From IMG/VR virus record IMGVR_UViG_3300024308_000030, positions 1 through 60,596 of that record: a DNA stretch of 60,596 bases, one strand, 5' to 3'. Made by a program: the position numbers and the translations under genes. The DNA is from a virus. Taxonomy: Duplodnaviria > Caudoviricetes. The number at the start of each line of letters is the position of its first letter. Position 1 is the first letter of the stretch. The notes beneath the pieces were generated by a model. That model searched no databases and had not been told where the DNA came from. It saw only the letters and a program-made list of their open reading frames with translations. Below, one piece after another: positions 36,139 through 60,569 of the stretch.

Positions 36139-36494
36139 GACCACGCGTGAATCCACTTCGCCTTGGTGCCCTTGGCTGTGCACTTCGCCACGCCCACGCG
36201 TGCTTGGGGTGTTTCGAGCCATCGTTCCAGATCTCCCAGGTTCATTTCGTTGATGACCAGCGTGCTACCGCCGGCCGCGTCTATCTCTGCCAGCCGCACC
36301 CACTGCAGCGCAGTCGGCACGCCGTCGCCTGCCTTGGCTTCGAGGCCCAGGTAGCGGCCGTAGTGGCAGATGGCGAAGTCCGGCGTGCCGTTGGTGGCGT
36401 AGCCGGTCATGACGGGCATCGTGTAGTAGGCCCCGTACTTCTTCAACAGCTTCTTGATCTTGTCCTTGACCTTCGCTTCAGGTGTCGCTGCCAT
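36135..36494 (-). CDS. VRR-NUC domain nuclease
   Basis: 'TPEAKVK', 'GTPDF', 'LEAKA', 'PTALQ...IDAAGG'. Confidence 0.88.
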   Translation of the reverse strand: MAATPEAKVKDKIKKLLKKYGAYYTMPVMTGYATNGTPDFAICHYGRYLGLEAKAGDGVPTALQWVRLAEIDAAGGSTLVINEMNLGDLERWLETPQARVGVAKCTAKGTKAKWIHAWS

Positions 36495-36906
36495 CGATCT
36501 TCTCCCACAGGCTGTCGTCTTCTTCGGCGTTATTGGGGTTGCCCGGGTGCGTGCAGTCCGGACACGGAGCGCAGCCGGTGTGGCAGCTGCAGCCGTTGCT
36601 CTCGTGGCGGTAGTCAAACGCCAGCTTGGCACCTTCATCGGTCAGTCGGTAGCCGTACCGGTACGGCCGTTGCGGCGGCTTGATGTCCCAGCCGCACAGC
36701 TCGCCCAGGGCGAACGCGGCCAGTAGGGATTCGCACGGCTCGCTTCGTCTGCCGCGATATCGAGCGACCCATTTATCCCCTGCGGCTATCAGCCAGTGGT
36801 TGTTCATGCGGGGTACGTGCGGGCGGAAGTAGCTGTGGCCATCGACGTGAGCCGCGTTGCGGAATCCCGCGGCCTCGATCACCTTGACCTGCTCCTCGAA
36901 GTCCAT
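36478..36906 (-). CDS. array-family domain fused to Cys/His-rich tail
   Basis: MDFEEQVKVIEAAGF...CESLLAAFALGEL plus 'CSCHTGCAPCPDCTHP'. Confidence 0.6.
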   Translation of the reverse strand: MDFEEQVKVIEAAGFRNAAHVDGHSYFRPHVPRMNNHWLIAAGDKWVARYRGRRSEPCESLLAAFALGELCGWDIKPPQRPYRYGYRLTDEGAKLAFDYRHESNGCSCHTGCAPCPDCTHPGNPNNAEEDDSLWEKIDGSDT

Positions 36907-42485: not shown

Positions 42486-42789
42486 GGATGTTTCCCCAGT
42501 AGTTGCTGCCTACGTACACCTTGATCACGCCCCGCAGCGCTGCCGCATTGGCGGCAGCAGTCATCTCGCCGAACGTTACCTCGGGTCCACTGCACAGGAT
42601 CTCGCCTTCGTGTATGACGACACGCGTCTTGAGCTCCTGGCTCCACCCCCGGTTGGGGGCGAAGTTCATCCAGCGCATGAACTGGTTCATGCGTGTCTCG
42701 CTGCGGCGCACGCGCTCGACGATCTCCTGAATCGGATCGCCGCCGTACTTGCCGTCTTCGTAGCCGTGAGGCCGTTTGTCTTCAGACAT
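42478..42789 (-). CDS. hypothetical protein
   Basis: MSEDKRPHG...; GGAG RBS. Confidence 0.6.
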   Translation of the reverse strand: MSEDKRPHGYEDGKYGGDPIQEIVERVRRSETRMNQFMRWMNFAPNRGWSQELKTRVVIHEGEILCSGPEVTFGEMTAAANAAALRGVIKVYVGSNYWGNIHV

Positions 42790-43060
42790 GGATAGCTCCC
42801 AGCGCCAGTGCGGCGCACAGTGTTTCGAACGAATCGTAGGCGGCATAGAAGCACACGTAGTTCTGCCGCGATCTTGGTATTGTCGTAACGGGCGAACGAA
42901 CAACCCACGTGCCGTTGAACGAGCCTACGTAGATGACCCTGCCGAATCGCGAAGGGCCGCCTGTCAGCCAATACGCTCCTGCGAACCGTGACGTCGCTGT
43001 ATTCATCCCGAGACTACGTAGAACTTGTAGCTGCTGGGGAGTAAAGAAGTCGCCGTTCAT
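42782..43060 (-). CDS. small array-family protein
   Basis: 'QVLRSLGM'...'YDSFETLCAALALG'. Confidence 0.65.
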   Translation of the reverse strand: MNGDFFTPQQLQVLRSLGMNTATSRFAGAYWLTGGPSRFGRVIYVGSFNGTWVVRSPVTTIPRSRQNYVCFYAAYDSFETLCAALALGAIHV

Positions 43061-43353
43061 TTCGTCAGCTCCAGGTAAGCGACCATCGCTTCGAACGTGT
43101 CGAACGCGGCGACGATGCAGAAGTTGCGGGTGTCGTGCCCGCCGTTGCGTTCTTGCTCCGTCATCGACGGGCGCAGTACCCAGTGGTCTTTGTACATCGT
43201 CCCGTACAACTCTCGGTCACAGCACATGGCGCCGAACCAGGAAGCATTCATGTCCGTCACGTCGTCTGCACCGCACCAGAGGCAAACGTAGGCGTACCCC
43301 AAGGTCTTCAGCCTGGTCTTGTACGCCGCCGGTATACTCACGTGGACGCTCAT
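43057..43353 (-). CDS. small array-family protein
   Basis: 'RLKTLGY'...'FDTFEAMVAYLEL'. Confidence 0.65.
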   Translation of the reverse strand: MSVHVSIPAAYKTRLKTLGYAYVCLWCGADDVTDMNASWFGAMCCDRELYGTMYKDHWVLRPSMTEQERNGGHDTRNFCIVAAFDTFEAMVAYLELTK

Positions 43354-44210
43354 GCGAGCGCCCCGGTGAAGAAGGCCAGCACGTCCTTGTGCATGGCGCA
43401 GGCCTCGTTGAATGCCGCCTTGCGGGCGTGCGGGTCGGTACGCAGGCGGTCAGGCTCGTGCTGGCACAGGTGCTGCGACAGGCGCTTGGCGATCACGTCC
43501 AGCTGAGGGTCGGCGGTGAGGTTCAGCGACGGCAGCACTTCGGCCAGGTCGCGGGCGTTCTCTACCAGGCTGTCGCGGAACACGGTCTCGGGCTTCGCCA
43601 GGCGATCGATGAACGCCTCCAGCACCTTGGCCACCCGCTGGTAGGCATCGCCCACGGCGCTGGTCAGCGTGGCCGTGGTGGTGCGCTCGATCTCTGCCTG
43701 GACCCGGGCCAGCTCGTCCTCGCCGATCTCGACGCGGAAGTCGCCGGCGCACGGCAGCGGCAACACGTTCAGGCGGAAGTCGAACTTGCCGGCCAGCACG
43801 TCGGCGGTCGGGTAGTCGTCCTCGTTGAACAGGGTGCCCAGCAAGCGCTTGGCTTCCTGGCGGTGCAGCGGATAATCACCCAGCAGCTGGGCGACGGCGT
43901 TGTCGAACTCGGTCTTGAACTCGCCGATGCGCTGCATGTAGTCGAAGTAGCCCATGCTCGACAGGGCGCGCGGGCCGGCGTCGGACCAGGGCAGAGTGCA
44001 GCGGTAGTGGTAGTCGCGGGCCGAGCGCACCACCTTCTGCACGGTCTCCAGCGCGGAGCCGTCGATCAGCGACTTGTAGTAGGTGCCCTGGTTCTGCGCC
44101 AGCTGGTGGTTCGCAGCGACCTCGGACGTGGCCTTGCGGTCGATCTTGCGAGCAGTCCACTGCGACACGCGCAGGTCAACGAGCATGGCTTTGGTGGCAA
44201 TGTGGGTCAT
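43350..44210 (-). CDS. DUF3150-like protein
   Basis: 'LVDLRVSQWTARKID', 'TLPWSD.G.R', 'FNEDDYP', 'FRDSLVEN' motifs of proteins accompanying phage AAA/VWA modules. Confidence 0.7.
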   Translation of the reverse strand: MTHIATKAMLVDLRVSQWTARKIDRKATSEVAANHQLAQNQGTYYKSLIDGSALETVQKVVRSARDYHYRCTLPWSDAGPRALSSMGYFDYMQRIGEFKTEFDNAVAQLLGDYPLHRQEAKRLLGTLFNEDDYPTADVLAGKFDFRLNVLPLPCAGDFRVEIGEDELARVQAEIERTTTATLTSAVGDAYQRVAKVLEAFIDRLAKPETVFRDSLVENARDLAEVLPSLNLTADPQLDVIAKRLSQHLCQHEPDRLRTDPHARKAAFNEACAMHKDVLAFFTGALA

Positions 44211-44230
44211 GGTGTTTCTCCGGTCAGGGT

Positions 44231-44497
44231 TTAGTTCATCGTCAGTGCGGCGTACATCACCGCGGCTTGCAACTGGTCTGGTTCAAACACTAGCAAGGGC
44301 GGTCCTACAGGACCAAATTTTTTCGACTTGTGCACGTGCCACTGGCCGGTGCCAGCGGCGTTCGGCATCACGACGGCGGTCTCCGACGCGTAGCCGCAGA
44401 ACTGAGTCTCGCCGTCGTAGCGGGTGATCGTGTACCACCCTTCGGGCAGCCACTCGGGTCGGTCTTCGGTCATTTCCACCACCACGAACTCATTCAT
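44231..44497 (-). CDS. small array-family protein
   Basis: 'WLPEGW'...'QLQAAVMYAALT'. Confidence 0.6.
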   Translation of the reverse strand: MNEFVVVEMTEDRPEWLPEGWYTITRYDGETQFCGYASETAVVMPNAAGTGQWHVHKSKKFGPVGPPLLVFEPDQLQAAVMYAALTMN

Positions 44498-44792
44498 AGG
44501 CCGGGTTGTATCCGTCCTGCTGGGTCAACATGAAGGCGACGGCGGCCGCAGCCGGCGATGGGAACCCACCGAGGATCGTCTTGGCCTTCTCCCTCGGCGA
44601 GCTGATAGTCGTGATCGCCCACAGCCCGTCGTCGAAATCGTCCCGCCAGATCCGCAGTGCCCGGCGCACCACCCGCCCATCGGGGTAGCGGAAGTCCACC
44701 ACCCGGCGCCACGACGGTACGCCCTGGCGGTCGGAGCTGTGCAGCTGCCACTCCTCGGGCATCACCCAGAGGCTTTCCTGGTGGCTGTTCAC
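44490..44792 (-). CDS. small array-family protein
   Basis: 'MPEEW'...'FPSPAAAAVAFMLT'. Confidence 0.62.
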   Translation of the reverse strand: MNSHQESLWVMPEEWQLHSSDRQGVPSWRRVVDFRYPDGRVVRRALRIWRDDFDDGLWAITTISSPREKAKTILGGFPSPAAAAVAFMLTQQDGYNPAYE

Positions 44793-45223
44793 GGCTTGAA
44801 CCAGCTCGGCGGGAAAGCCTCCAGATCGGCCGCGCAGTATTTGCGCATGTCGTATTCGTACTTCCTCATGGCTGCCTGGTACTCAGCCATGGACTGCCCC
44901 GGCTTGACGTTGCGCAAGGCGTCGTGGGCCATTCGCGCCAGGGACAAATCTGGCGTGTTGGCTTTTGCCGGCGCCAGCTCAGGGTTCAGCTCGACCGCCA
45001 CCACTGCTGCCACCGGTGTCGGGTAGAACGTCATCGACCCTTCGAAGTGCCACTTGATCGCGCCGCTCACGGGCTTGGCTCGCAGCTTCGGCTGGCCTTC
45101 CTTCTGGAATGCAGCGCCTTCCACCAGATCGTAGCCGTGCTCGTACAGCTGGCGGACCCAGGCCCAGGCTTCGTCTTCGCTGGGCGCCCACATGTCGATC
45201 AGAAGTTTCATTTTCGCCTTCAT
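44789..45223 (-). CDS. array-family protein with C-terminal extension
   Basis: 'APSEDEAWAWVRQLYEHGY'...'YPTPVAAVVAVEL'. Confidence 0.68.
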   Translation of the reverse strand: MKAKMKLLIDMWAPSEDEAWAWVRQLYEHGYDLVEGAAFQKEGQPKLRAKPVSGAIKWHFEGSMTFYPTPVAAVVAVELNPELAPAKANTPDLSLARMAHDALRNVKPGQSMAEYQAAMRKYEYDMRKYCAADLEAFPPSWFKP

Positions 45224-45226
45224 GGT

Positions 45227-45643
45227 CTACCACCCTCGGGGTTCGGTGAACTCAGTGTCGTCGGCTTTAGCCTCGATCCGTTCTGTGTAACTGCGTATCG
45301 GCACCTTAGCCTTCGGCACCTTAGCCTTTGGGGGCACCGGCGGAATTTCGTCGGTTTCGACGAACAAATCCAGGGCAACTACGGCTGCGACCGGAGACGG
45401 GTAGGTCACTTTCTCGTCGTTCATGAGCGGCCTGCCGTTCCTGCACACAATCCAGCGGACTGCGCCGGCGACCAAGCAAGGCAGCATGTACTGGCCGTGT
45501 TGGTTGACGAACCCGGGGATCGTGTTCTCATCCCCCGGGCTCGTCAGAATCCAGCCACGCTCGTGCATGGTGCGGAGCCAGGCCCAGCCTTCGTCTACTG
45601 TCGGCGCGGCGTGGTTAACTAGTCTAGTTATCGGATCTTTCAT
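45227..45643 (-). CDS. array-family protein with C-terminal extension
   Basis: 'APTVDEGWAWLRTMHERGW'...'YPSPVAAVVALDL'; close paralog of the adjacent gene. Confidence 0.68.
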   Translation of the reverse strand: MKDPITRLVNHAAPTVDEGWAWLRTMHERGWILTSPGDENTIPGFVNQHGQYMLPCLVAGAVRWIVCRNGRPLMNDEKVTYPSPVAAVVALDLFVETDEIPPVPPKAKVPKAKVPIRSYTERIEAKADDTEFTEPRGW

Positions 45644-45902
45644 CGCTCGCTACTCTGAAAAGGCCAGGGAAAATCAGGATCAGCTGGGCGTACGCGGCCT
45701 CCGCGTCGGGGAGCAGCGTGATGTCCACGTCGCCGACGATAATGCGCAGCTCGTCGCCCGTGGTCGTCGTGTGCAGCTGGATACGCCCGTCCGGTATTGG
45801 GTACGCGAGGTTCACCTCCAGCCGCGGCAGCCGGTCGTACATGATCTCGGCCGCGCTGGTGTTGGTGAAGCCCGTGTACGCCAGCATCCAGTTCTCAATC
45901 AT
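45624..45902 (-). CDS. small array-family protein
   Basis: 'MLAYTGF'...'LPDAEAAYAQLIL'. Confidence 0.6.
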   Translation of the reverse strand: MIENWMLAYTGFTNTSAAEIMYDRLPRLEVNLAYPIPDGRIQLHTTTTGDELRIIVGDVDITLLPDAEAAYAQLILIFPGLFRVASDERSDN

Positions 45903-46210
45903 TTCGGATCTCCCATCAGCTGCATCACGGCGTGGACCATCATCGGGTCAGGGTAGGGGCCAACGTCCCATGTGTCCCAGTCACGGTCGTCGTGGTAGCT
46001 GAACCCCCTGATGTGGTTCAGAGCTGGGCGCCAGGGGCGCCAGCGCCCACCCCACATACCCTGGTGCTTGCCCTGCAGGATCGGCACGATGAAGCGGCCG
46101 CGGTGCTCACGGACAGGCATAGCGAACCGCTCGCGGGTGCCGTTATTCCGCCAGTCGTAGCCGAGCTTGCGCATGGCAACGCGCTGCTCCTTGGTGCTAG
46201 TCCAGATCAT
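45899..46210 (-). CDS. small array-family protein
   Basis: 'AMRKLGY'...'YPDPMMVHAVMQLMG'. Confidence 0.65.
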   Translation of the reverse strand: MIWTSTKEQRVAMRKLGYDWRNNGTRERFAMPVREHRGRFIVPILQGKHQGMWGGRWRPWRPALNHIRGFSYHDDRDWDTWDVGPYPDPMMVHAVMQLMGDPK

Positions 46211-46478
46211 CTTTCGTCAACTCCCATGCGAACAGGGCTGCCTGCGGCGACTCGTGCCATTCGCCCAGCATCCCGAGCTTCCACAAGTCATTCGAGCAAT
46301 GCAGGTTCACCGCATAATCGGGATGACCGAACCGTCGGTTGAGCCTGATATCGGTCACCCCTCTGTACGCGGTACTTATGTCGGCCCAGCCTTCAGCTGC
46401 TACCCAGTCGAGGTTTCGTTGCTTGCGTGTCTTCCACTGCAACGGCGTCAGCTGGCCCTTCGCCCACTTGGTCTTCAC
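46197..46478 (-). CDS. small array-family protein
   Basis: 'WVAAEGW'...'HESPQAALFAWEL'. Confidence 0.65.
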   Translation of the reverse strand: MKTKWAKGQLTPLQWKTRKQRNLDWVAAEGWADISTAYRGVTDIRLNRRFGHPDYAVNLHCSNDLWKLGMLGEWHESPQAALFAWELTKDDLD

Positions 46479-46702
46479 TGCGCACCCCCCAGCAGTGCGT
46501 AGGCTGCTGCGGCCTGGACCGTCTCGAACCGCACTGTCTCCCTTGATCCCTTAGTCCATGCCACCCAGCCTGGGCGCAGATCGAACTCTTTCTCGATGGC
46601 GGCGGGGAAATGGTCGTCGTAACGCTGTTCACCATGCGTCCAATAAAAAACGTCCGGGTTGTTCACCCACCCGTTCTCGATCAGCCACTGCTCGTCGTTC
46701 AT
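46475..46702 (-). CDS. small array-family protein
   Basis: 'WLIENGW'...'FETVQAAAAYALLG'. Confidence 0.68.
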   Translation of the reverse strand: MNDEQWLIENGWVNNPDVFYWTHGEQRYDDHFPAAIEKEFDLRPGWVAWTKGSRETVRFETVQAAAAYALLGGAQ

Positions 46703-46932
46703 TCCGGCGGTCCTAGTAGAGCCCAGGCCACAGCGGCCTGGACAGAAGGGAAAATCTTCCCGTGCTCAGACCCGGCGGGAAACCCCTGCCACACCAGACT
46801 ACTGGCGTTCTGGCGAACCGCAGCGGGTTGGGGCTGGCTGACCCCTGTGCCTGGCGCAAACCACCACTCGCACATCGGCGTCCAGCCGTTGGCACGCAGC
46901 CATTCTTTGTCAGCGTTCGTCGAACTGGACAT
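46699..46932 (-). CDS. small array-family protein
   Basis: 'WLRANGW'...'FPSVQAAVAWALLG'. Confidence 0.68.
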   Translation of the reverse strand: MSSSTNADKEWLRANGWTPMCEWWFAPGTGVSQPQPAAVRQNASSLVWQGFPAGSEHGKIFPSVQAAVAWALLGPPE

Positions 46933-48049
46933 TGATCGTGGTCCCCCACGGCGACTTGACGTCGGTGGTGCTGAGCCACAACACGTTCGGGCGCTCGTCC
47001 CCGAACGGCGTGTAGCCGTCGGTCAGCACGATCGTCAGCTGGGCGTCCGGGGCGTTCTTCTCGACCCAGTCCAGGCCAACGGTCATGTCGGTCCCACCAC
47101 CGCCCACGCGCTTGGCGCTGGTGCGGACAGCTTCCGGGTCGGGGCGCTCGAAGTAGTCCACGTGGTTCACGTCGGCGTCGACGTAGATCACGATCAGCTC
47201 GCTCGGGCACACGTCGTTGACCGCGCCGCACACCTCGCCGAAGAACTGCCGCAGCTCCTTGGCGCCGATCGAACCCGAGGTGTCGATCTGGAACACCAGC
47301 TTGCGCATGGCGCCGTCGCTGTACAGCCCGGGCAGGTAGGTGCCCTGCGCCACGAAGCGGCGGTTCGGCCTGGCGAACGTGTAGTCGGAGCGTGCCTTCT
47401 CGGTGAGATAGACCTTGAGCTGTTCCTGCCAGGCGACCACCGGGTTCATCACCTCGTCGATCAGCTCGCGGATGCCGGCCGGCAGTTTGCCCATGGCCTT
47501 GGCCACCTGCGCCGCCTTGGCGATAGTCGCCTTGGCTTTTGCCTGGGCCGCCGGACCCTGGTCCGGGGCGTCCATGAGGTCGTCGTCCAGCGGGTTGCCG
47601 TTACCGTGGTCCGCACCTCCGCCACCCGGCGGGTCGGGCGGCAGCTGGGCATAGACCTGCTCGCTGGTCATGCCGGCGTAGGCCTGGCTGTGCAGCACGC
47701 CAGCGGGCAACGAACCTTTCTCCTTGAAGATGATGTCGTTGATCACGTAGTCGGCGGCATGATTCCAGCGCTGCGGGCTGCGGCCCTGGCGGCGCCACGG
47801 ATGCATCAGGGCGATGTGCATGCACTCGTGCTTGAGCACGCCCACGGCTTCGGCCAGCGGGAGCTTGTTGAAGTTGACCGGGTTGACGTACAGATTCGCC
47901 CCGTCGGTGGCCGCTTGCCACAGCTTGCGTCCGTCCGGGAGTTCCTGGGTCTCGATCACCTTCAGGCTGAACATGATCGTCGCGTAGAACGGGTGATTGA
48001 TCACCAGCTGCGTCTTGGCCTTTTCGAAAATCGAGTGCTTCTTAATCAC
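46910..48049 (-). CDS. HExxH metallopeptidase-like + VWA domain protein (DUF2201-like)
   Basis: 'AATDG', 'HECMH', 'WNHAADYVIN', MIDAS 'IDTSGS', 'GGGGTD', 'LTDGY'. Confidence 0.88.
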   Translation of the reverse strand: MIKKHSIFEKAKTQLVINHPFYATIMFSLKVIETQELPDGRKLWQAATDGANLYVNPVNFNKLPLAEAVGVLKHECMHIALMHPWRRQGRSPQRWNHAADYVINDIIFKEKGSLPAGVLHSQAYAGMTSEQVYAQLPPDPPGGGGADHGNGNPLDDDLMDAPDQGPAAQAKAKATIAKAAQVAKAMGKLPAGIRELIDEVMNPVVAWQEQLKVYLTEKARSDYTFARPNRRFVAQGTYLPGLYSDGAMRKLVFQIDTSGSIGAKELRQFFGEVCGAVNDVCPSELIVIYVDADVNHVDYFERPDPEAVRTSAKRVGGGGTDMTVGLDWVEKNAPDAQLTIVLTDGYTPFGDERPNVLWLSTTDVKSPWGTTINVQFDER

Positions 48050-48278
48050 GGCTCTTCACCTCTGCGATCAGTTGGGTAAGCTGGCGCGCGGCGGCGCGCA
48101 GCTCCCGGATTTGTTGCAGCTCCTCGCGGAGCGTGACCAGCACGCGCTTCCTCGCACGAGCCAGTTCCTCTTGGATGCATGCCAGCGCGAAGCGCCCGTC
48201 GAGCTTGGCGTCGTCGCTCAGTCCCTCGGCCTGCAGTCTACGGCTGGCCTTGGCCAGTTCGCGCTTCCACTGGGTCAC
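48042..48278 (-). CDS. small coiled-coil protein
   Basis: 78-aa helical ORF between VWA and AAA genes. Confidence 0.5.
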   Translation of the reverse strand: MTQWKRELAKASRRLQAEGLSDDAKLDGRFALACIQEELARARKRVLVTLREELQQIRELRAAARQLTQLIAEVKSRD

Positions 48279-48576
48279 GTTGCACCTTCCTCGGGTCTCG
48301 CTTGACGTCCTCCGGCGTCAGCAGGAACGCTGCTGATGCCGCTTCGGCCGAGGCGAAGACCACGTTGTAGACCGTCCTCGGGTATCGATGCCCGGTCGTG
48401 AGGTCTGCGATCAGGGCTCGCATCCGCCAGCCATTGGGTTTCCTAGCCGGGGCTATCACCCAGCGCGTCGAACCGATGGGGTTCTTGTGGCTGTAGCGCC
48501 AGTAGGCGAATGACTCGCCGCCCGGCGACAGCAGCGGTTTCCAGCCCTGGTTGACCAGGGCTTGGATCGGCTCCAC
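48238..48576 (-). CDS. array-family protein
   Basis: 'ALVNQGW'...'FASAEAASAAFLLT'. Confidence 0.62.
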   Translation of the reverse strand: MEPIQALVNQGWKPLLSPGGESFAYWRYSHKNPIGSTRWVIAPARKPNGWRMRALIADLTTGHRYPRTVYNVVFASAEAASAAFLLTPEDVKRDPRKVQRDPVEARTGQGQP

Positions 48577-48577
48577 C

Positions 48578-49687
48578 TCACACCCCAGAGATCAGGCTGG
48601 CGTTGCTGATGGCCCACTTGTTGAAGGTGCTGGTCTGAGACAGGGTGCTGTCGCGACGCAGCGAGTCCTGGATGCTGAGCACGGCCATCTCCGGGCGCCC
48701 TGCCTTGGCGAAACGCTCCAGGTAGTTGAACACGCTCTCCTGGTTCTCGTGGGTGGTGCGAGCACCCAGGGCGACAGCCACGGCGTACTGAGTCGCGCTG
48801 TCGTCCGGCAACGGGGCGCTGTGCGGGTTGAGCAGGATCGCCTCGATGCTCGGCATTTGCAGCCAGACGTCGCGGAAGGCGATGTACTCAGCCGCCGGGC
48901 CCTTACCCACAGATCCCATGGCCAGGTTGTACATGCGGTCAGCCGGCAGCTTGGCCTTCTCGTAGCGGTCCACCATCACCCAGCTGCGCTCGGTGGCGAA
49001 TGCGTCGCCCTCCAGCTTCTTGGTGACGTGGTCGTCGAACGTGTTGAGCAGGTCCGGGCGCATCGCCATGAACGCCAGCAGGCAGGTCTCGATGTTGCCT
49101 TGGGACAGGCCCCAGCTACGCCAGCAGTCGAGGTCCGACTCGACGTCGATGTGGGTGGCACGGTTGGCCAGCGGCGTCGGCATCTTGAACACCACGCCGC
49201 CGTCGGTCATGCGGTTACCGGTCATGACGATGCTCCAGCCCGGCTTCATGCGCTTGCTACCGATGCGACGGTCGTGCGTCAGCTGGTAGGCCGCGGCCTG
49301 CACGGACATGGGCGCCGAGACGATCTCCTCCAGGGCGAGGATGCCGTAGTCCGGCACGTCCTCGCGGCCGATGAAGGGGAACCAGTCGGGCACCAGGCGA
49401 TCCTGGGTGCCGTGCACGCTCGCCACCGGCAGGCCGCCGATGTCCACCGGGTCGCACTGCGACAGGCGCACGTCGATGAAGCCGAAGCCGTCCTTCATGC
49501 CGAAGCCTTCGGCCGGCTGATCGCCGTACTCGATCACGCCCGCCTTGAGGCCCAGGTCTTCGGCGCGCTGCGCCGAGGCTTGGAGGATGGCAGCGGACTT
49601 GCCGATGCCGGGAGCTCCGCGCACCATGAGCACGGTGCTGGCGATGTTGGCGTCACGGATGTGGGCGATCAGGTCATTTACGTTCAT
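48578..49687 (-). CDS. MoxR-like AAA+ ATPase
   Basis: Walker A 'GAPGIGKS', 'DVRLSQ..PVDI.GLP', Walker B 'LALEE', 'TGNR', 'PLANR'. Confidence 0.88.
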   Translation of the reverse strand: MNVNDLIAHIRDANIASTVLMVRGAPGIGKSAAILQASAQRAEDLGLKAGVIEYGDQPAEGFGMKDGFGFIDVRLSQCDPVDIGGLPVASVHGTQDRLVPDWFPFIGREDVPDYGILALEEIVSAPMSVQAAAYQLTHDRRIGSKRMKPGWSIVMTGNRMTDGGVVFKMPTPLANRATHIDVESDLDCWRSWGLSQGNIETCLLAFMAMRPDLLNTFDDHVTKKLEGDAFATERSWVMVDRYEKAKLPADRMYNLAMGSVGKGPAAEYIAFRDVWLQMPSIEAILLNPHSAPLPDDSATQYAVAVALGARTTHENQESVFNYLERFAKAGRPEMAVLSIQDSLRRDSTLSQTSTFNKWAISNASLISGV

Positions 49688-49760
49688 GGTGTATCTCCGT
49701 TCGGGTTAACTAGGGGTAGTTACTGCGGGTTGGTGGAGCTAAATCTCAAACTGTAGGCAT

Positions 49761-49788
49761 AGTTTACACTAGCCAGGGTAAGGGTCAA
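49761..49788 (-). promoter_or_regulatory. putative sigma70 promoter for AAA/VWA operon
   Basis: minus strand TTGACC-N16-TAAACT; palindrome at 49706-49722 lies just downstream. Confidence 0.65.
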
Positions 49789-49793
49789 GTTTT

Positions 49794-50057
49794 CTAGGAT
49801 GCGTTGCTGCTTAGTGCCACGAAAGCGATGACCGCCTCGGGCGATTCGAACGTACCCTTGAGGACAAAGCCGGTGACTGCGTGCGCGTCCCACTGTAGAA
49901 GACGGACGGTGGTCCAGTACAGGCTGTACGTACCGCGACCTGCGTAGCGCCGAACCTCCCAGGTGCCGCCCTTAACGTGCTTGCGGTAGTAGCGCGGGGC
50001 GTCGTTTTTCTTGTGCCACCCTGTGGCGCGGAACAGGTTGGGTTTTTGCTCAGCCAT
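49794..50057 (-). CDS. small array-family protein
   Basis: 'LFRATGW'...'GTFESPEAVIAFVAL'. Confidence 0.7.
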   Translation of the reverse strand: MAEQKPNLFRATGWHKKNDAPRYYRKHVKGGTWEVRRYAGRGTYSLYWTTVRLLQWDAHAVTGFVLKGTFESPEAVIAFVALSSNAS

Positions 50058-50271
50058 TTCGGCCTCCTTGTGTCAGTGCCACGTAGGCGATGACCGCCTC
50101 GGGCGATTCGAAAGTTCCACAAAAGCGTGTGAGGCCGCCGTCCAGAGCGATCAGCTTCCACCCGTTTTCGACGAGGATAGTCAGCCAGTAGCCACGGGGC
50201 CGTCCACGCAGCGTGTAGGACTGCCCCGTGGCGCAGGACCAGCCAGCCTCCAGGAACAGCGCGCTAGCCAT
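50050..50271 (-). CDS. small array-family protein
   Basis: 'LFLEAGW'...'GTFESPEAVIAYVAL'. Confidence 0.7.
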   Translation of the reverse strand: MASALFLEAGWSCATGQSYTLRGRPRGYWLTILVENGWKLIALDGGLTRFCGTFESPEAVIAYVALTQGGRNG

Positions 50272-50527
50272 GCAGGTCGCTCCTCATCTGGAAGTAGACG
50301 CAGAGCGCGGCCGCGGTTGGATACACGCCGAGCGACATGGTCTCCACCCGCCTGGCGCTGCCTGTGTTACGGCAGGTGACCTCGTTGAGATACCACTGGT
50401 CGTCGATACCGCGCGCCGCCGAGTAGGTGGTACTCACTGTGGCTCCTTTCCGCATCCACACCCAGTCCTCTCCGTTCCAGTGGCTCTTCTTCCAGCCGAA
50501 CGACAGGAACGGCTCTTCGTCGGTCAT
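50264..50527 (-). CDS. small array-family protein
   Basis: 'MTDEEPFLSFGW'...'YPTAAALCVYFQM'. Confidence 0.68.
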   Translation of the reverse strand: MTDEEPFLSFGWKKSHWNGEDWVWMRKGATVSTTYSAARGIDDQWYLNEVTCRNTGSARRVETMSLGVYPTAAALCVYFQMRSDLHG

Positions 50528-50769
50528 GACTGCCACCCCTTGATCTCCGCGGCAATGAACGCCGCCAGCGCGGTTTCGCCGTAGGCGACCTCGCTCCAGC
50601 CGCCGTTGACTTTCACCGCCCATGCCATCCACAGAGTCTCGTGCCTGACGCTGGGTTGGTCTCTCCCATGCGGCATCGGCGCCATCACACAGCGCCCACG
50701 AAGGCCCGTCCAGTCGCCGTCCGCGTCAACCATGAACCCCGCCTCAATGAGCAGCCGCGAGTCGTCCAT
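50524..50769 (-). CDS. small array-family protein (DGDW subgroup)
   Basis: 'LLIEAGFMVDADGDW'...'GETALAAFIAAEIKG'. Confidence 0.7.
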   Translation of the reverse strand: MDDSRLLIEAGFMVDADGDWTGLRGRCVMAPMPHGRDQPSVRHETLWMAWAVKVNGGWSEVAYGETALAAFIAAEIKGWQS

Positions 50770-51235
50770 CGCGCACCTCCCTCATCACCCGACGGGACTC
50801 CTTGTCGCACCACGCGTTGCACCACTGGCGAGGCTCCCACACGCCGGCATGGGCCTTGACGTGGTTGACCTTGAGCCAGAACTGGTGCTCGGCCTGGGCC
50901 CGCTGCAGCTTCGACAGCAGAGTGGCGATCTCCGGCCTGGCCGTGAGGCGGTTGGCCGCGCCCTCCAGCACCTGCTTGACCGCCAGGCAGTCGGTGACCA
51001 GCACCAGCCGGCGCGACGGCCCCTGGCGCAGCTCCGGGCCTATCACCGGGTGCCGGTACAGGCGGTCGAACGCATGCAGCGCGGCCAGCAGCTCGGCGCC
51101 GCCCGAGCAGGCGGCGTCAATGGCGAAGCCCTCTTTGTAGAACGTGCTCCCAGTCCTGGCCCAGAACGCAGCGCCGCCGGCGCGCGTGTGGGTACAGAAA
51201 CTGGCGTCCGTGAACAGGGTTATGTTTTCGATCAT
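50744..51235 (-). CDS. RNase H-like protein
   Basis: 'LFTDAS', 'GAELLA', 'VTDC..V', 'HVKAH', 'N..CD' RNase HI catalytic pattern. Confidence 0.82.
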   Translation of the reverse strand: MIENITLFTDASFCTHTRAGGAAFWARTGSTFYKEGFAIDAACSGGAELLAALHAFDRLYRHPVIGPELRQGPSRRLVLVTDCLAVKQVLEGAANRLTARPEIATLLSKLQRAQAEHQFWLKVNHVKAHAGVWEPRQWCNAWCDKESRRVMREVRDGRLAAAH

Positions 51236-51468
51236 CGCGAATCTCCAGTCAGTAGTGCGCGGGCCACGAGCACCAGTGGATGCTCGCCGGGTTTACTTCG
51301 CATCGACTGCCCTTCCATGGGCCAGAAGTCCCATTCGACACCGTCGAAGTTACATTTCTCGTCGTACAGCATTCCTGCTGGTGACGACCAAAAGTAGCCT
51401 CCGCGCCAGTTGTACGGCATGTCCTCCTTTTCCCACCCCGCTGCACGCAGGTCGTCTTCAACGCTCAT
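51232..51468 (-). CDS. small array-family protein
   Basis: 'DLRAAGW'...'PGEHPLVLVARALLTG'. Confidence 0.7.
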   Translation of the reverse strand: MSVEDDLRAAGWEKEDMPYNWRGGYFWSSPAGMLYDEKCNFDGVEWDFWPMEGQSMRSKPGEHPLVLVARALLTGDSR

Positions 51469-51722
51469 AGCGTGTCTCCAAGCAGTAGCAACGCCGCGGT
51501 GTACGCTGCGAGCGGCGACACGCCATCCGCTATGCGCTCCTGGTAATACTGGACCTGCCACAGGGTTGGGTGGCGTTCCACGCGACCCGAGCGTAGCCAC
51601 GGTACGTTACTGGGTCGGATCAAGAATACGTGGATGCCGTCTACGCGGCTGTTAGACACCCAGTCGCCCTCGACATCGCGCTCGAATCCGATACGCTTTA
51701 GCTCTCTTTCCTCACTGTTCAT
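51465..51722 (-). CDS. small array-family protein (DGDW subgroup)
   Basis: 'ELKRIGFERDVEGDW'...'GVSPLAAYTAALLLLG'. Confidence 0.72.
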   Translation of the reverse strand: MNSEERELKRIGFERDVEGDWVSNSRVDGIHVFLIRPSNVPWLRSGRVERHPTLWQVQYYQERIADGVSPLAAYTAALLLLGDTL

Positions 51723-51960
51723 GTATCACCCCGAAAAGTATCGCCGCTCCATACGCCGCGAGCGGCGTGGCAGCTTTGGCTATGTTGCGGCCGTTGTACC
51801 TTACGGTCCAGAAAACTGGGTCGCGGTTATGGCTGTCGTGCCGCGCAGTCGGACGGAGCAGAAAGACCCGGGGACTACGCGCGCCGAAGCACCAGTCGCC
51901 GTCGTGGTCGAGGAACAAGCCGAGGCGTTTGAGCTCGGCGATCTCGTCTTCAATTCCCAT
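51712..51960 (-). CDS. small array-family protein (DGDW subgroup)
   Basis: 'ELKRLGLFLDHDGDW'...'ATPLAAYGAAILFG'. Confidence 0.72.
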   Translation of the reverse strand: MGIEDEIAELKRLGLFLDHDGDWCFGARSPRVFLLRPTARHDSHNRDPVFWTVRYNGRNIAKAATPLAAYGAAILFGVIHEQ

Positions 51961-52201
51961 CGGCCACCTCCGGCAGCAAGGACTGGCCTGCGTACGCAGC
52001 CAGTGGCGTGGGCGCAAAGAAAGACCCGCGCTTGCGGTTGGTGCACTGCCACTGCGAACCGCGCACCAGGCCGTAATGAAGATTCGGACTGAACAACCAG
52101 GTGCGGGTGCCCCGGTTAATCCAGTCACCGTCCTGATCCTCGACGAACCCCAGCGCGGCGAGCTGCTCGCGCTCTTCGGCGGTAATCAGTTGGCTATCCA
52201 T
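51950..52201 (-). CDS. small array-family protein (DGDW subgroup)
   Basis: 'ITAEEREQLAALGFVEDQDGDW'...'APTPLAAYAG'. Confidence 0.72.
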   Translation of the reverse strand: MDSQLITAEEREQLAALGFVEDQDGDWINRGTRTWLFSPNLHYGLVRGSQWQCTNRKRGSFFAPTPLAAYAGQSLLPEVADGN

Positions 52202-52430
52202 CGAGCGATCCTCCCCGCAGCATCCACAAAGCTAATGCGGCCAGTGGCCTATCGGCGCCGACCAAAGCCTCACCGAATCTACCGGCTTCCCATCTGGGTG
52301 GCTTCTCCCACTCGCGGGGGCGGAACAGACAGACGGATCGCACGAGACCATTGCTCCAATCCCCGTCCAGGCCCTCGACAAACCCCAGTTCGAGGAGCTT
52401 CTGGCGCTCCTCGGTGGTGATTTTGCGCAT
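52194..52430 (-). CDS. small array-family protein (DGDW subgroup)
   Basis: 'ITTEERQKLLELGFVEGLDGDW'...'DRPLAALALWMLRG'. Confidence 0.72.
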   Translation of the reverse strand: MRKITTEERQKLLELGFVEGLDGDWSNGLVRSVCLFRPREWEKPPRWEAGRFGEALVGADRPLAALALWMLRGGSLDG

Positions 52431-52443
52431 GATTTAACTACTC

Positions 52444-52665
52444 CTAGTTAATGGACAGCTGCCACGCGGCGAAGACCGCCAGCGGGTGCTGCCCGGGCTC
52501 GCCGCTACGTCCTGGGCTTTGGCCGAAACGGCCTGTACTCCATGTCTTCCCGGTTCGCACGACATAGAACTCGCTCTGCCTGAAATAGGCTATGCCCTCC
52601 ATCGCATCGACGTATTTCACCGGCTCCCAGCCGCAGTCCAACAGGTCCAGCTCTTCTTGGGTCAT
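52444..52665 (-). CDS. small array-family protein
   Basis: 'LLDCGW'...'PGQHPLAVFAAWQL'. Confidence 0.7.
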   Translation of the reverse strand: MTQEELDLLDCGWEPVKYVDAMEGIAYFRQSEFYVVRTGKTWSTGRFGQSPGRSGEPGQHPLAVFAAWQLSIN

Positions 52666-52922
52666 GGCTGATACCCCGCCAGTTGCCAGCGCACGTAGAG
52701 CGCGACCGGCGATTCATCTGGCGCTCCAGTGGCCAGTCGCCCGCTGCCCTGCAGCCACAACTCCCAGCCCCCGTGGCCGTTGAACTTCGGCGGGTAGAGG
52801 CATAGCAAATATGGATGCGTTTCGATGTGTTTCTCCCATCGCCGCTCGCTTATGTCCCGGTAATGCATGCCGTCGAGGTAGAACCCGTACGCCCTGAGCG
52901 CATTGAAATCGTCGTCAGTCAT
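52662..52922 (-). CDS. small array-family protein
   Basis: 'ALRAYGF'...'GRLATGAPDESPVALYVRWQLAG'. Confidence 0.72.
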   Translation of the reverse strand: MTDDDFNALRAYGFYLDGMHYRDISERRWEKHIETHPYLLCLYPPKFNGHGGWELWLQGSGRLATGAPDESPVALYVRWQLAGYQP

Positions 52923-53170
52923 GTCGCGTCTCCAGTCAGCAGCCAGCGCGCGTAGAGCGCCACAGGGCTCTCGCCTGGTGCACCGCGCGCCACCAGCCTG
53001 CCTTGGCGCCATACATCCCAGCCGGGATGGTCATTGTCTTCCGGCGCGTAGATCGACGTTCGGTGTCCGCATACGTTGTGGCGTCTGTAAGCCCTGCGTA
53101 CCTCGTGGTCCGCAACGGGCGTGAAGCCGTAGGCGGCCAGCGCCTCGCCGAACTCTTTCCACTCGCTCAT
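52919..53170 (-). CDS. small array-family protein
   Basis: 'ALAAYGF'...'GRLVARGAPGESPVALYARWLLTG'. Confidence 0.72.
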   Translation of the reverse strand: MSEWKEFGEALAAYGFTPVADHEVRRAYRRHNVCGHRTSIYAPEDNDHPGWDVWRQGRLVARGAPGESPVALYARWLLTGDAT

Positions 53171-53424
53171 AGGAACCCCCGCAGCTTCAACGACGCTAGC
53201 ATCGCGTCGAGCGTTTCGTAGTACTCGTCGAAGTTGTGCCTGTCGATGTCTCGCGTCGGCCAGTAGATGTTCCACATGCGTCTCTTTTCTCCGGTACGGG
53301 CGCGATCTGCGACGGACACACCCGGCGGGTACAGCCACGCGCTGGCCCAGCCGATGTCCTTGGTGTACTTTCCGTTACGCCAGTGATAGAACCCCGCCGC
53401 GTTCAGCTTTTCTTCGTCGGTCAT
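53167..53424 (-). CDS. small array-family protein
   Basis: 'MTDEEKLNAAGF'...'YETLDAMLASLKLRG'. Confidence 0.7.
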   Translation of the reverse strand: MTDEEKLNAAGFYHWRNGKYTKDIGWASAWLYPPGVSVADRARTGEKRRMWNIYWPTRDIDRHNFDEYYETLDAMLASLKLRGFL

Positions 53425-53702
53425 AGCAAACCCTCCAGGGCCAGGCATGCCAGGATCGCGGGCAGCGGACGGTAGTCCGGCTCGTCGTAGCTCGCGGGAA
53501 ACTGGCCGCGTGCGGGCATCGTCACGAGAAATCCGCTGGCGAGTGGGTCGTTTGTCTTCTGTATGATCAACCTGGCTATCCCTTCGCCGCCGTGGCTACG
53601 CTGGACGTAGCGGTAGGTAGTTTCGCCGAGCCAGGTCTCGCGCTTAAATCCGTACTGAGCCAGGATGTCACGCTCGGCCTGGCTCATCAGTTCTACTTTC
53701 AC
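53421..53702 (-). CDS. small array-family protein
   Basis: 'ERDILAQYGF'...'YRPLPAILACLALEG'. Confidence 0.68.
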   Translation of the reverse strand: MKVELMSQAERDILAQYGFKRETWLGETTYRYVQRSHGGEGIARLIIQKTNDPLASGFLVTMPARGQFPASYDEPDYRPLPAILACLALEGLL

Positions 53703-53914
53703 ATCCAGCCCTCCAGTTTCGCTGCGACGATCAGAGCCACGGGGTCGCCTTCGCCGAACACGTCCCACACCAAATCATCGGTGTAAAGGTTCCACCCGCT
53801 CAGGCCATTTCTATCCAGCCAGTGGGTCGGCTTGCCGTTGACGCGGCGCACGAACCCGTTTGAGGTCATGGGCTTGCACTCGAAAAACCCAAACTCGGCC
53901 AGCTTCTCGTTCAT
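53699..53914 (-). CDS. small array-family protein
   Basis: 'KLAEFGF'...'RRVNGKP'...'GDPVALIVAAKLEG'. Confidence 0.72.
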   Translation of the reverse strand: MNEKLAEFGFFECKPMTSNGFVRRVNGKPTHWLDRNGLSGWNLYTDDLVWDVFGEGDPVALIVAAKLEGWM

Positions 53915-54159
53915 AGATCACCCACCAATACGGCTGCAGTTATGAGGCTCACCGGGTCATCGCCGTGCTTGAAATAGACCGGGTTCTTGCTGACGTACAG
54001 CGACCAGTACCGGCGCTCTTGCTGCCCTTCGTACTCTGGCAAGAACGGCGGGTACACGGCCGCCACGGGGTGGCCGTTCACGCGCTTGCACATGCAGTCG
54101 GCTTCCTTGTAGAACCCGTGGGCGGCCAGGGCCGCCAGCTGTTCGTCGGTCAGGTTCAC
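53911..54159 (-). CDS. small array-family protein
   Basis: 'LTDEQLAALAAHGF'...'KRVNGHP'...'GDDPVSLITAAVLVG'. Confidence 0.72.
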   Translation of the reverse strand: MNLTDEQLAALAAHGFYKEADCMCKRVNGHPVAAVYPPFLPEYEGQQERRYWSLYVSKNPVYFKHGDDPVSLITAAVLVGDL

Positions 54160-54377
54160 AAATCACCTCGCATTGTCGCCGCTGCGACGAGTGCTATGGG
54201 GTCGGGGCCTTCGTAGAACGGCCCGAGGCCCGCAAGACTCCACACCCTGGCCGCTCGGAGGTAGACCAGCGTCGCTTTCAGCGTACCGTCAGGCCGTCGA
54301 GCGGCCCAGATGGTCCCACCGTGGAGCCTGAACCCGTAGGCGGCGAGCGCTTCTTTCTCTTCGTCGGTCAGTCCCAT
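54156..54377 (-). CDS. small array-family protein
   Basis: 'LTDEEKEALAAYGF'...'GPDPIALVAAATMRG'. Confidence 0.72.
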   Translation of the reverse strand: MGLTDEEKEALAAYGFRLHGGTIWAARRPDGTLKATLVYLRAARVWSLAGLGPFYEGPDPIALVAAATMRGDL

Positions 54378-54598
54378 ACCACACCCTCCAGAATCGCCCT
54401 GGTTACCAGCACCACGGGGCATGGCCCCGTATACGGCTGGACATCACCGGTGACCATCCATAGGCGCTGGCTGGTCAGGTACTGGACGATCGCGATCACC
54501 TTGTCCAGGTCGTTGCGCTTGACCCAATAGCTCGACAGCTTGTCACGCACGAACCCGTGGGCGGCCAGGGCGTCCTGCTGTTCCTGCGTCAGGTCCAT
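54368..54598 (-). CDS. small array-family protein
   Basis: 'LTQEQQDALAAHGF'...'GPCPVVLVTRAILEG'. Confidence 0.72.
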   Translation of the reverse strand: MDLTQEQQDALAAHGFVRDKLSSYWVKRNDLDKVIAIVQYLTSQRLWMVTGDVQPYTGPCPVVLVTRAILEGVVWD

Positions 54599-54848: not shown

Positions 54849-55768
54849 GGCTTGGGCTCCTTGCTCGGTACGAACAGCGGGTCGGCGCCGATGAAGACTT
54901 CGTCCGGGCAGTTCGGCCACTCCTTGCGGATGGCCTCGAACTCGCCGTCGTTCCACATGCCGAGGAACGTGATGCCTTCGCCTTCTTCCTGCTCGACCCA
55001 CAACGCGAAAGCGATGGCCGCTGTCGAGGCGCTGTGGTCTTCCTGCTCAGTCACCGGCGCCGTGTACAGCGCGTTGTTCTGCCCTTCCCGGCGGTGCTGC
55101 GCCGGCGTGACGCCGACGCTGGAGCCACGACCGTTGCGGATTTGGTCGAGGACGTGGTTGTCGCAGTAGGCGACAGCCTGCTGCTGTTCGGACGCAGGCG
55201 GGGCGGGGGCGGCGGCGAGCAATGCGGCGTAGGCGTCCTCATGCGTGCCCGGTGTCGCCCAAAGTGCACGGATCATTTCGCTGGTTGCCTCTTCCGGCGC
55301 CAGTCGCCACCCCTCCGGCACCCCAGCAGCAGGCGGTGCGGAGAGCGCGGCGCGGCCCTCGATGGCAGCGATGAATACGTCACTTGGCTTGCCCGGAAGC
55401 TTGCGTGCCTGTTGAGGGTCAATACCGAGGTAGTCGCACAGGACAACGAAAGTTTCCAAGAGCATGGCGCGCTCTGCGCTGATGCTGGCTGTCATACGCT
55501 CGTGCTGGGCGACGGTCATCAGCCCCTGCTCTTCGATGCCGTCTAACACTGGGGTGCGGAAATCAAGGTGCCATCCTGGGTTGTTCTGCGGCGGGTCAAT
55601 AACACGCCACCGAAGCGCCACCACCTCCGGCTTCTCCTCCTGCACCTGCGCGGCGGGAGGGGTGCATGCAGAATCAAGATGGCGCCAGGTGCTTTCGCAC
55701 TCGGGGCATTCCTCCCCGTCCGGGCCTACCCATGCGTGGTCATCGCAGAATGTCATTTTATCGGTCAT
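54845..55768 (-). CDS. mosaic Ea/ead-like early protein
   Basis: 'EKPEVVA', 'LMTVAQHER', 'VPEGWRLAPEEATSEM', 'YAALLAAAPAP' motifs typical of Pseudomonas phage early mosaics. Confidence 0.65.
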   Translation of the reverse strand: MTDKMTFCDDHAWVGPDGEECPECESTWRHLDSACTPPAAQVQEEKPEVVALRWRVIDPPQNNPGWHLDFRTPVLDGIEEQGLMTVAQHERMTASISAERAMLLETFVVLCDYLGIDPQQARKLPGKPSDVFIAAIEGRAALSAPPAAGVPEGWRLAPEEATSEMIRALWATPGTHEDAYAALLAAAPAPPASEQQQAVAYCDNHVLDQIRNGRGSSVGVTPAQHRREGQNNALYTAPVTEQEDHSASTAAIAFALWVEQEEGEGITFLGMWNDGEFEAIRKEWPNCPDEVFIGADPLFVPSKEPKP

Positions 55769-57280: not shown

Positions 57281-57293
57281 GGCTTAACTACTC

Positions 57294-57551
57294 CTAGTTA
57301 GCGCCTTGGCGGCAGTACGAACAGTGTGTGCCGGGCGCGATGTGATGGATCGAAGCCGGGTGCACGCCGCTGTGGTTCAAGTATTCTTCGGCGCTCCCGG
57401 GTAGCCCTTTTACCGGCCCCGCCCAGTGGAAACGGAACACGTGCCATCGGCCTTTTTTCGTCGTCCACTGGACACATCGGCCGGCTAGTGCGTCGAAAGT
57501 TGTTCGCGCTGCTGCGACACCTCTTACGGTGGCTTGGATTATCTGGCTCAT
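57294..57551 (-). CDS. hypothetical protein
   Basis: 85-aa ORF; stop lies inside a palindrome. Confidence 0.5.
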   Translation of the reverse strand: MSQIIQATVRGVAAARTTFDALAGRCVQWTTKKGRWHVFRFHWAGPVKGLPGSAEEYLNHSGVHPASIHHIAPGTHCSYCRQGAN

Positions 57552-58917: not shown

Positions 58918-59006
58918 TAGGGTTACTCCGTTAACTAGTGGTAGTTAAGCAAGGCGCACTAAGGCCGCTTGTAGCAGGGTTCACTAGACGCACTTGTCTA
59001 ACTAAT

Positions 59007-59034
59007 ATCATACGCTTCTAGGGGTTAGGGTCAA
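59007..59034 (-). promoter_or_regulatory. putative early sigma70 promoter
   Basis: minus strand TTGACC-N16-TATGAT; shares CTTGACCCT(A/T)ACCC with the promoter at 49788. Confidence 0.7.
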
Positions 59035-59345: not shown

Positions 59346-59499
59346 ATATTCGTGGTCGTCTCGTGGCTACTTCTAGCCCTGGCCGCCTGTGGGAATCAGG
59401 CTGGACGCCTAGTGCCACGCGGCTTGCAGCCGTTTTTACCCTCTAATCGGGCTTTAGCTTAACTACAACTAGTTAACCTTTCGCTACATCTGAAACAAC

Positions 59500-60109: not shown

Positions 60110-60569
60110 GGTGTATCTCCAGTCAGGTTGTGGGTCAGACGCGGCCGTAGCCCAGCGTGAACACGGTTGCGAGGATGAGTGCTAGCCAGACGTATTCCAT
60201 GTGTGGTGCTCCGGTCGGTGGCTCGGCGTAGTTGCTTTGCCTGAACAAATAGTAGCACAAGCCGCACTTGCTTAACTAGTTGTAGTTAAGCTGAATCAAT
60301 CTCCAGCGCCGTGTGTTCCGAACAAAGAATTCTTTTCCCGGCCGGACACCCACGCGGGGGGAGGCGGGGGAGGGGCGGTATGTCTTACCCGTGTCTCTCA
60401 CACCACAGGGTCAAAAATGGCCCCGTATACTTTGTATACAGGTGTACTAGGAGAACTCGTCGCAAAAATTCCAGGGTCAAAATTTTGAGCCCCGGCTTGA
60501 CACAACATCCCCATTGCGCAAAGATGACATTGCCACGCAGGCACCGGCAAGGCAGCCAGGGCACGGACG

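Follow-up and report, generated by a model that had tools for sequence, protein, structure and literature searches.

Cellular pairs of a MoxR-type AAA+ ATPase and a von Willebrand factor A (VWA) protein, such as NorQ/NorD, CbbQ/CbbO and RavA/ViaA, as well as Midasin/Rea1, are systems in which a ring-shaped ATPase pulls on a target gripped at a metal ion-dependent adhesion site (MIDAS). Here we analyse a locus with a related set of genes on the contig of an uncultured phage of the Caudoviricetes (IMG/VR virus record IMGVR_UViG_3300024308_000030), the whole 60,596-base stretch being referred to as the window. Three larger genes, encoding an AAA+ ATPase, a protein in which a zincin-type metallopeptidase is fused to a VWA domain, and a diverged DUF3150 protein, lie there among numerous small paralogous genes. 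This trio is a module inherited as a unit by phages and conjugative plasmids, which is already catalogued and of unexplained mechanism; the new observation is its embedding in a 30-copy orphan family. As best explanation it is assumed, with moderate confidence, that the trio forms an early protein-remodelling or protease machine belonging to the inherited module, and that the array of small genes is a separate, clade-specific expansion.

Among phages, the genes gp24 ('unknown') and gp25 ('vWFA domain') of N4 belong to the only 14 core genes that N4-like phages have in common and are found on middle transcripts, as stated by Chan et al. (2014, PMC4193335). Among plasmids, vcrx089 (AAA_5 and CbbQ_C) and vcrx090 protect the entering IncC plasmid from type I restriction, and their deletion lowers transfer into a restricting host 25-fold (Roy et al. 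2020, PMC7498323), while EcoBI/EcoKI restriction increases 424- to 906-fold upon the same deletion (PMC11602122). In the 'hde' (host defence evasion) region of IncC and SXT-R391 elements these two anti-restriction genes are followed by ssb-bet-exo, a DUF3150 gene and a VWA gene. In Pseudomonas phages 'vcrx089' is listed as an anti-defence gene, by annotation only (2026 preprint, 10.64898/2026.02.22.706922).

A preliminary description of the window, drawn from the nucleotide sequence, had placed the three larger genes on the minus strand as an AAA ATPase, an HExxH-VWA protein and a DUF3150-like protein. All three were found at these positions and all three labels hold, two of them (the AAA_5 class and DUF3150) by transitivity only, since the window proteins show no direct Pfam match. 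The first gene (48578..49687) encodes a 369-aa AAA+ ATPase of the N4 gp24 type and the midasin/MoxR (AAA_5) class, which matched PHROG 1297 'ATPase' with an E value of 2.7e-79. In Pfam no family was found at E<=0.01; the best one was AAA_16 with an E value of 0.018, and the cut-offs of AAA_5 and AAA_3 were not reached. Homologues from the phages PEV2 (24.9 bits) and Pag-Yong1 (23.6 bits) lie above the AAA_5 cut-off of 22 bits, and it is by transitivity only that the window ATPase is placed in this class. A profile of the ATPase family (25 members) matched the AAA modules of Midasin in the PDB with an E value of 1.3e-33, as well as NorQ (5.7e-6) and CbbQ (8.5e-6). By tblastn, 789 phage records were found, all below 60% identity and many of them N4-like, with 29-30% identity over 94% of the protein for Pseudomonas N4-like phages; homologues also occur in jumbo phages (Bacillus phage G, CBB). 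Invariant in 25 sequences were G24 and K30 of Walker A, N158 and three arginine residues including R176 and R234, for which we assume sensor-1 (N158) and arginine-finger roles. The Walker B motif reads LALEE in the window compared to the consensus FLDE, which is a conservative change.

The zincin-VWA protein (46910..48049, minus strand, 379 aa, N4 gp25 type) comprises DUF2201_N (PF13203; E 5.9e-44, 151.1 bits against a cut-off of 23.2, residues 8-242) followed by DUF2201 (PF09967; E 1e-20, 74.5 bits against a cut-off of 26.4, residues 251-374). Across 26 sequences, H74, E75 and H78 of the HExxH motif were conserved to at least 90% and H83 was invariant, and the MIDAS (DxSxS, T, D) was complete with D256, S258, S260, T320 and D344 invariant. 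Judged by these residues, the ATPase and the zincin-VWA protein keep all catalytic and metal-site motifs. The VWA protein also matches PHROG 1314 (E 1.2e-89), which carries the label 'HNH endonuclease'; since the Pfam domains and motifs are those of a zincin-VWA protein, this label is wrong for the family.

The third protein (43350..44210, minus strand, 286 aa) showed no direct match in Pfam, PHROG or NCBIfam, and PF11348 was not found even at E<=10. Its assignment as a diverged DUF3150 protein comes from its 512 homologues: among the 120 listed, 11 with 36-43% identity carry PF11348, one homologue with 54% identity bears the name DUF3150 in UniRef, and DUF3150 is also the annotation of the homologue nearest among phages. 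The predicted model (predicted local distance difference test, pLDDT, 86.5) shows long helical hairpins upon a small sheet. Fold searches with this model gave nothing above background and no solved relative.

The preliminary description had grouped the ATPase with the VWA protein and set the DUF3150-like gene beside them. This grouping was confirmed by co-occurrence in viral loci and on conjugative plasmids. A single-sequence locus search with the DUF3150 protein gave no match; an alignment of its relatives gave 599 pattern matches in viral contigs, of which 589 encode a DUF3150 relative. The best 80 of the 599, sampled by DUF3150 homology alone and with at most 10 kb of flank on each side, were taken as viral loci. 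In 65 of the 80, both an ATPase and a zincin-VWA gene were present, always on the strand of the DUF3150 gene; each of the remaining 15, which lack a partner, is flanked on one or both sides by under 4 kb of DNA (contig ends). With A, D and V denoting the ATPase, DUF3150 and VWA genes, the order was ADV in 35 loci, AVD in 21 and DAV in nine, and in 15 of the 35 ADV loci both junctions were 150 bp or shorter. The trio spanned 2857-7205 bp with a median of 3518; the 6338 bp of the window lie within this range, three loci being wider. Moreover, the DUF3150 type was found in 62 plasmid records, 29 of them conjugative. The trio recurs across hundreds of viral contigs and also on conjugative plasmids, some of them from families spreading drug resistance, and DUF3150 and DUF2201 are scarcely mentioned in the literature searched.

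Small genes of other kinds were seen in some of these loci. The cyanophage Pag-Yong1 shows the order ATPase, small open reading frame (ORF), DUF3150, three small ORFs and VWA; there, the gene two downstream of VWA (L001 10048-11088) is annotated as anti-CRISPR AcrVA2 and matched no Pfam family at E<=0.1. A distant relative (record G005) has a run of four paralogous ORFs, 63-72 aa long, between its DUF3150 and VWA genes (L048 11046-11849). They belong to a different family from that of the window (family profile E > 300), and L032 has a pair at the same position. At L041 135-1401 and L082 7851-8893, two or three tandem paralogues lie directly upstream of the ATPase gene.

Compared to N4, the window ATPase and VWA protein belong by profile to the same two families (PHROG 1297 and 1314; DUF2201_N and DUF2201) and likewise lie outside the late structural genes, in the early arm in the window and on middle transcripts in N4. 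The homologue in the N4-like phage PEV2 is annotated as N4 gp24-like, and the two genes there follow the same order, likewise separated by a small gene. In contrast, no DUF3150 gene was seen beside the pair in PEV2, while the window adds DUF3150 and 10 interleaved small paralogues, and the window phage is not N4-like overall. All three families are found together on plasmid pRK1-1 of Cupriavidus basilensis (a Burkholderiales conjugative type), on one strand in the order AAA-DUF3150-VWA, with a VWA protein matching DUF2201_N (E 9.1e-51) and DUF2201 (E 5.5e-22), a DUF3150 protein 32% identical and an ATPase about 31% identical to those of the window. The difference is that pRK1-1 is a plasmid and not a phage, and that its trio genes are directly adjacent, separated by just 107 and 7 bp and free of small paralogues. 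The cellular MoxR-VWA pairs and Midasin/Rea1 resemble the trio in the matches of the ATPase profile and the intact MIDAS, whereas the window trio has its VWA domain fused to a zincin and a DUF3150 protein as additional partner, and its module travels on mobile elements.

In the mechanism proposed here, the ATPase ring would supply an ATP-driven pulling force, the MIDAS of the VWA domain would grip an acidic residue of the target protein, and the fused zincin would cut this target. DUF3150 could join as third subunit and serve as a scaffold or confer specificity. The target would probably be a host protein met soon after DNA entry, which would point to a role in establishment, host takeover or counter-defence. 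Such a role is proposed by analogy with the anti-restriction genes vcrx089-090 of IncC, which sit beside a DUF3150/VWA pair; for counter-defence this is only an analogy. IncC plasmid pAR060302 has a CobS/CobT-like version of the module, in which an AAA_5 and CbbQ_C ATPase, a 302-aa gene, ssb, bet, exo, DUF3150 (305 bits) and VWA follow each other on one strand. Several differences weaken the comparison. The IncC ATPase carries CbbQ_C, for which the window ATPase gave no match, and BLASTP between the two reached an E value of 5.8, that is, no pairwise similarity. The IncC VWA protein is of the CobT type without a peptidase. No counterpart of vcrx090, the 302-aa IncC protein, was found in the window (best E 1.2), and none of the IncC proteins searched against the window found anything. 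The DUF3150 proteins are connected by a weak hhalign match (E 1.6e-4, probability 51%, 177 columns). Furthermore, it was vcrx089-093 that transposon-insertion sequencing of IncC (Roy et al. 2020, PMC7498323) singled out, and neither the DUF3150 nor the VWA gene; the phenotype as published likewise belongs to vcrx089-090. The IncC system is therefore an analogue in architecture, with a role that has been measured, and not an orthologue; no other relative has a measured phenotype.

The small genes surrounding the trio form a true family. Starting from an alignment of 28 candidates, a profile was iterated over all ORFs of the window and the sampled loci. It gave 30 members in the window, 29 at 42,782-54,598 and one at 36,478-36,906, which together occupy 8095 bases or 13.4% of the genome and encode 71-144 aa. 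All 48 profile matches of window and loci lie on the coding strand, and some of the small proteins form significant BLASTP pairs. Common to the family are an acidic N-terminal helix, a G(W/F), a central Trp and a C-terminal helix of the pattern P..A...A..L.G, with a mean column identity of 14% and a fixed scaffold carrying very variable loops. Gene packing is dense: 29 of the 33 junctions in the array block overlap or are at most 3 nt apart, and the only five non-members in the block are DUF3150, VWA, a 78-aa helical ORF, the ATPase and an RNase H.

All members are encoded on the minus strand. One member of 112 aa (48238..48576; family profile E 7.6e-11) lies between the AAA and VWA genes, as previously described. 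The 78-aa helical ORF next to it (48042..48278, minus strand, G+C at third codon positions 0.78) overlaps both of its neighbours and matched neither the small-family profile nor Pfam, PHROG or PADLOC. Nine members in a row (44231..46932; E 1.1e-13 to 1.1e-4) separate VWA from DUF3150, namely 46699-46932, 46475-46702, 46197-46478, 45899-46210 and 45624-45902, followed by 45227-45643, 44789-45223, 44490-44792 and 44231-44497. Two more (43057-43353 and 42782-43060; 42782..43353) lie downstream of DUF3150. The 12 interleaved members of the preliminary description are therefore reached if these two are counted, while only 10 lie wholly inside 43350-49687. Outside these coordinates, an upstream array (49794..54598, minus strand) comprises 17 further members and the RNase H gene (50744-51235). 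The remote member (36478..36906, 142 aa, E 4.1e-12) has a Cys-rich C-terminal extension (CSCHTGCAPCPDC). Outside the window it is best matched by G003 53197-53640, which likewise lies away from the trio.

For the member at 46475-46702, a model with the paralogues as sole alignment reached a pLDDT of 87.4 and a predicted template modelling score (pTM) of 0.77, showing a helix, five strands and a helix. Fold searches gave nothing above background, with a best E value of 2.2 in the PDB and 0.18 in BFVD by Foldseek, a best Z of 5.3 (root-mean-square deviation 3.5, 73 aligned) in the wide VIA search and a top score of 0.80 in the Atlas search. The family had no match in Pfam, PHROG or PADLOC. Altogether, the small proteins are a true family with a confidently predicted alpha/beta fold of about 75 aa and no known relative in the searches run. 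That they are truncated DUF3150 copies is ruled out, since aligning the family with the DUF3150 alignment by hhalign gave a probability of 0.1%. Against 1.84 billion representatives the family profile found 22 matches, 19 of which were the window's own, two repetitive and one a true outsider (P0139), whose genomic context was not found in viral or metagenome contigs. A word-indexed search with a wider alignment gave five matches, all from the G002 contig or the window, and a search anchored on the DNA polymerase gave only six loci, four of them contigs already in the sample.

The family tree is mostly unresolved, but all five well-supported pairs, including 46475/46699 and 44789/45227, are adjacent genes. 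The window copies cluster, with 5 label changes compared to 14.1 in shuffles and none of 500 shuffles as low. Most likely, the array arose in this lineage by tandem expansion and is dispersed along the early arm. It is read as separate from the trio because few trios have a member, the supported pairs are adjacent and members occur elsewhere in the arm. Tandem duplication would have raised the family to 30 copies, which came to lie between many of the early genes, including those of the trio. Most likely the small proteins act on their own, as host-binding proteins of the early phase with diversifying evolution, and are not obligatory parts of the machine.

The alternative put forward in the preliminary description was to see in the small proteins interchangeable adaptors or substrate receptors, which would dock on the AAA/zincin-VWA/DUF3150 machine through their conserved C-terminal helix and bring it different host targets. 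As a general model this found no support in the co-occurrence check. A family member was found in seven of the 80 loci, and within 10 kb in only five of the 65 complete trios, although the divergence of the family limits detection and the absence near most trios could partly reflect missed members. Plasmid trios have no small genes in between. In the window itself, 20 of the 30 members lie outside the trio span. Of these, 17 are found upstream of AAA and one at the 36.5 kb position, and RNase H is itself flanked by members. The proposed docking helix is also called into question: its conserved positions (the Pro cap, Ala, Ala/Leu, Ala/Val and Leu) form one stripe with variable positions in between. 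Since the conserved Ala/Leu positions form this single, buried-type stripe, the helix is read as core-packing, and its sequence fits packing on the sheet. A profile of the helix alone gave, at 6 bits or more, the known members, five new ORFs in the close clade and one wrong-strand match, and missed the arrays of L048 and L032, so that a helix common to the window family and those paralogues was rejected.

The points that speak for a link, and thus weigh against a wholly separate array, come mainly from a whole-genome scan of six complete clade genomes, the window and five relatives (G001-G005). They hold 30 members in the window and 4, 5, 6, 1 and 1 in the relatives. All six have a member upstream of AAA, the distance being 106-406 bp in five (131-406 bp in the four relatives among these) and 1.8 kb in G004. 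All four members of G001 are interleaved with the trio, and members between AAA and VWA occur in the window, G001 and G003. G004 and G005 have one member each, and each of the two finds its best match in the other (E 1e-8); the next-best matches of the G004 member are the two window members beside the ATPase gene, whose best outside match is in turn the G004 member (E 5e-4 and 2e-3). This amounts to a weak signal of reciprocal positional orthology across a trio rearrangement, with ADV on one side and AVD on the other. Other small paralogue pairs lie within 4 kb in 16 of 69 trio loci, some inside the trio, a count for which there is no baseline rate but which may reflect a general link of trios with small variable genes, and the fixed scaffold with its variable loops would also suit adaptors. 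On the other side, a crude placement test showed that a random early-arm gene would lie as near with P 0.15-0.29 per genome, the genomes being related, and the member adjoining AAA lies upstream of the AAA promoter. In three-chain complex predictions from the VWA and AAA alignments with the small-family alignment as partner, the runs scored 0.01, 0.54 and 0.34, compared to 0.00 and 0.00 in controls with the partner replaced and 0.47 with the VWA chain replaced, scores that speak neither for nor against binding.

Taken together, the adaptor model is a minority possibility and unlikely in our judgement. Less likely still is its fullest version, in which the 30 small proteins are a library of interchangeable substrate receptors for the zincin-VWA/DUF3150 machine, with the founder kept beside the ATPase gene clade-wide; if true, it would be a viral counterpart of adaptor-based targeted proteolysis, removing many host proteins, including defence proteins, early in infection. 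A founding member may have been a long-standing neighbour of the ATPase gene, by function or by inherited synteny. In either case the clade offers a handle, since one orphan family of small proteins with a confident fold keeps its place next to the ATPase gene and makes up 13% of the genome in one member of the clade. If linked, the array names candidate partners or substrates for the trio machine; if not, it is still a rare massive paralogue expansion in a 60-kb phage.

For the ATPase-VWA pair itself, a function as virion-assembly chaperone and maturation protease has to be considered. For group 2.2 jumbo phages, Iyer et al. (2021, PMC7824862) report that a metallopeptidase-vWA cochaperone accompanies a MoxR ATPase, and propose virion assembly and peptidolytic processing, and the window ATPase has the homologues in Bacillus phage G and CBB mentioned above. 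However, the same trio is carried by conjugative plasmids, which build no virions, the window trio lies in the minus-strand early arm more than 14 kb away from the plus-strand structural genes, and the PEV2 record notes that its ATPase and VWA copies are transcribed early. We consider this explanation quite improbable. A further reading takes the trio as a phage-borne system for defence or superinfection exclusion, of the vWA-MoxR type reportedly described as NTP-dependent conflict systems. This would suit the trio's carriage on mobile elements but appears highly improbable, as no PADLOC model matches any of the three proteins, the pair belongs to the core gene set of lytic N4-like phages, and the one tested relative (IncC) helps the invader and not the host.

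The reading of the trio as an early machine is consistent with the region upstream of the ATPase gene, a 106-bp AT-rich gap with 47% GC. The single promoter that had been proposed there at 49788 (TTGACC, 16 nt, TAAACT; 49761..49788, minus strand) is a putative sigma-70-like site with a 9/12 match, of which two were found in a generic scan against 2.1 expected. As a generic match it is thus not above chance level, whereas its TTGACCCT core is enriched: it occurs five times where 1.17 are expected, a count that 2 of 100 shuffles attained, and each copy lies at 49.7-60.5 kb on the minus strand. Promoter-like sequences also lie at the same place in G001, G002 and G003. The sites (49781-49788, 55415-55422, 59027-59034, 60407-60414 and 60473-60480) comprise an extended -35-like core, often preceded by A/T runs, and are probably a set of early promoters. 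Since the small-family member just upstream of AAA lies upstream of this promoter, it falls outside the trio unit.

The leader of the ATPase gene contains the 17-bp palindrome TAACTACCCCTAGTTAA (49706..49722, minus strand), 19 nt before the start codon. Six sites of this palindrome (TAACTACNNCTAGTTAA) are present in the window compared to 0.01 expected, at 49706-49722, 52434-52451, 57284-57301, 58931-58948, 59459-59476 and 60272-60289, mostly in leaders, where they precede minus-strand start codons by a few to about 20 nt. The palindrome may be an operator or a leader hairpin of early genes. A hairpin forms, with fold z-scores of -1.85 to +0.02, which are not significant for RNA structure, and the relatives carry a different palindrome at the same leader position. 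From these elements, the ATPase gene heads its own transcription unit with an early-type promoter and leader, and this unit probably runs through VWA and DUF3150.

The window is rated 99% complete and has a G+C content of about 64%. Genes on the plus strand (1-29 kb) encode a terminase, a portal-type adaptor, a major head protein and a 2048-aa virion protein, while those on the minus strand (29-60 kb) encode a primase/helicase, a helicase, exonucleases, a DNA polymerase, an HNH endonuclease, RNase H and many small genes. All features of the trio and the small family lie on the minus strand inside this replication or early arm. A megablast search of the trio region against phages gave no match, and PDB searches with single sequences likewise returned nothing. 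In the virion protein (12734-18880), the first 350 residues match a 'virion RNA polymerase' PHROG (E 3.4e-16) and the C-terminal part a 'DarB-like antirestriction' PHROG (E 2.5e-64). On the minus strand, the sequence of the right end (60570-60596) opens with four tandem AGGGGGG units, which may be a terminal feature of the genome.

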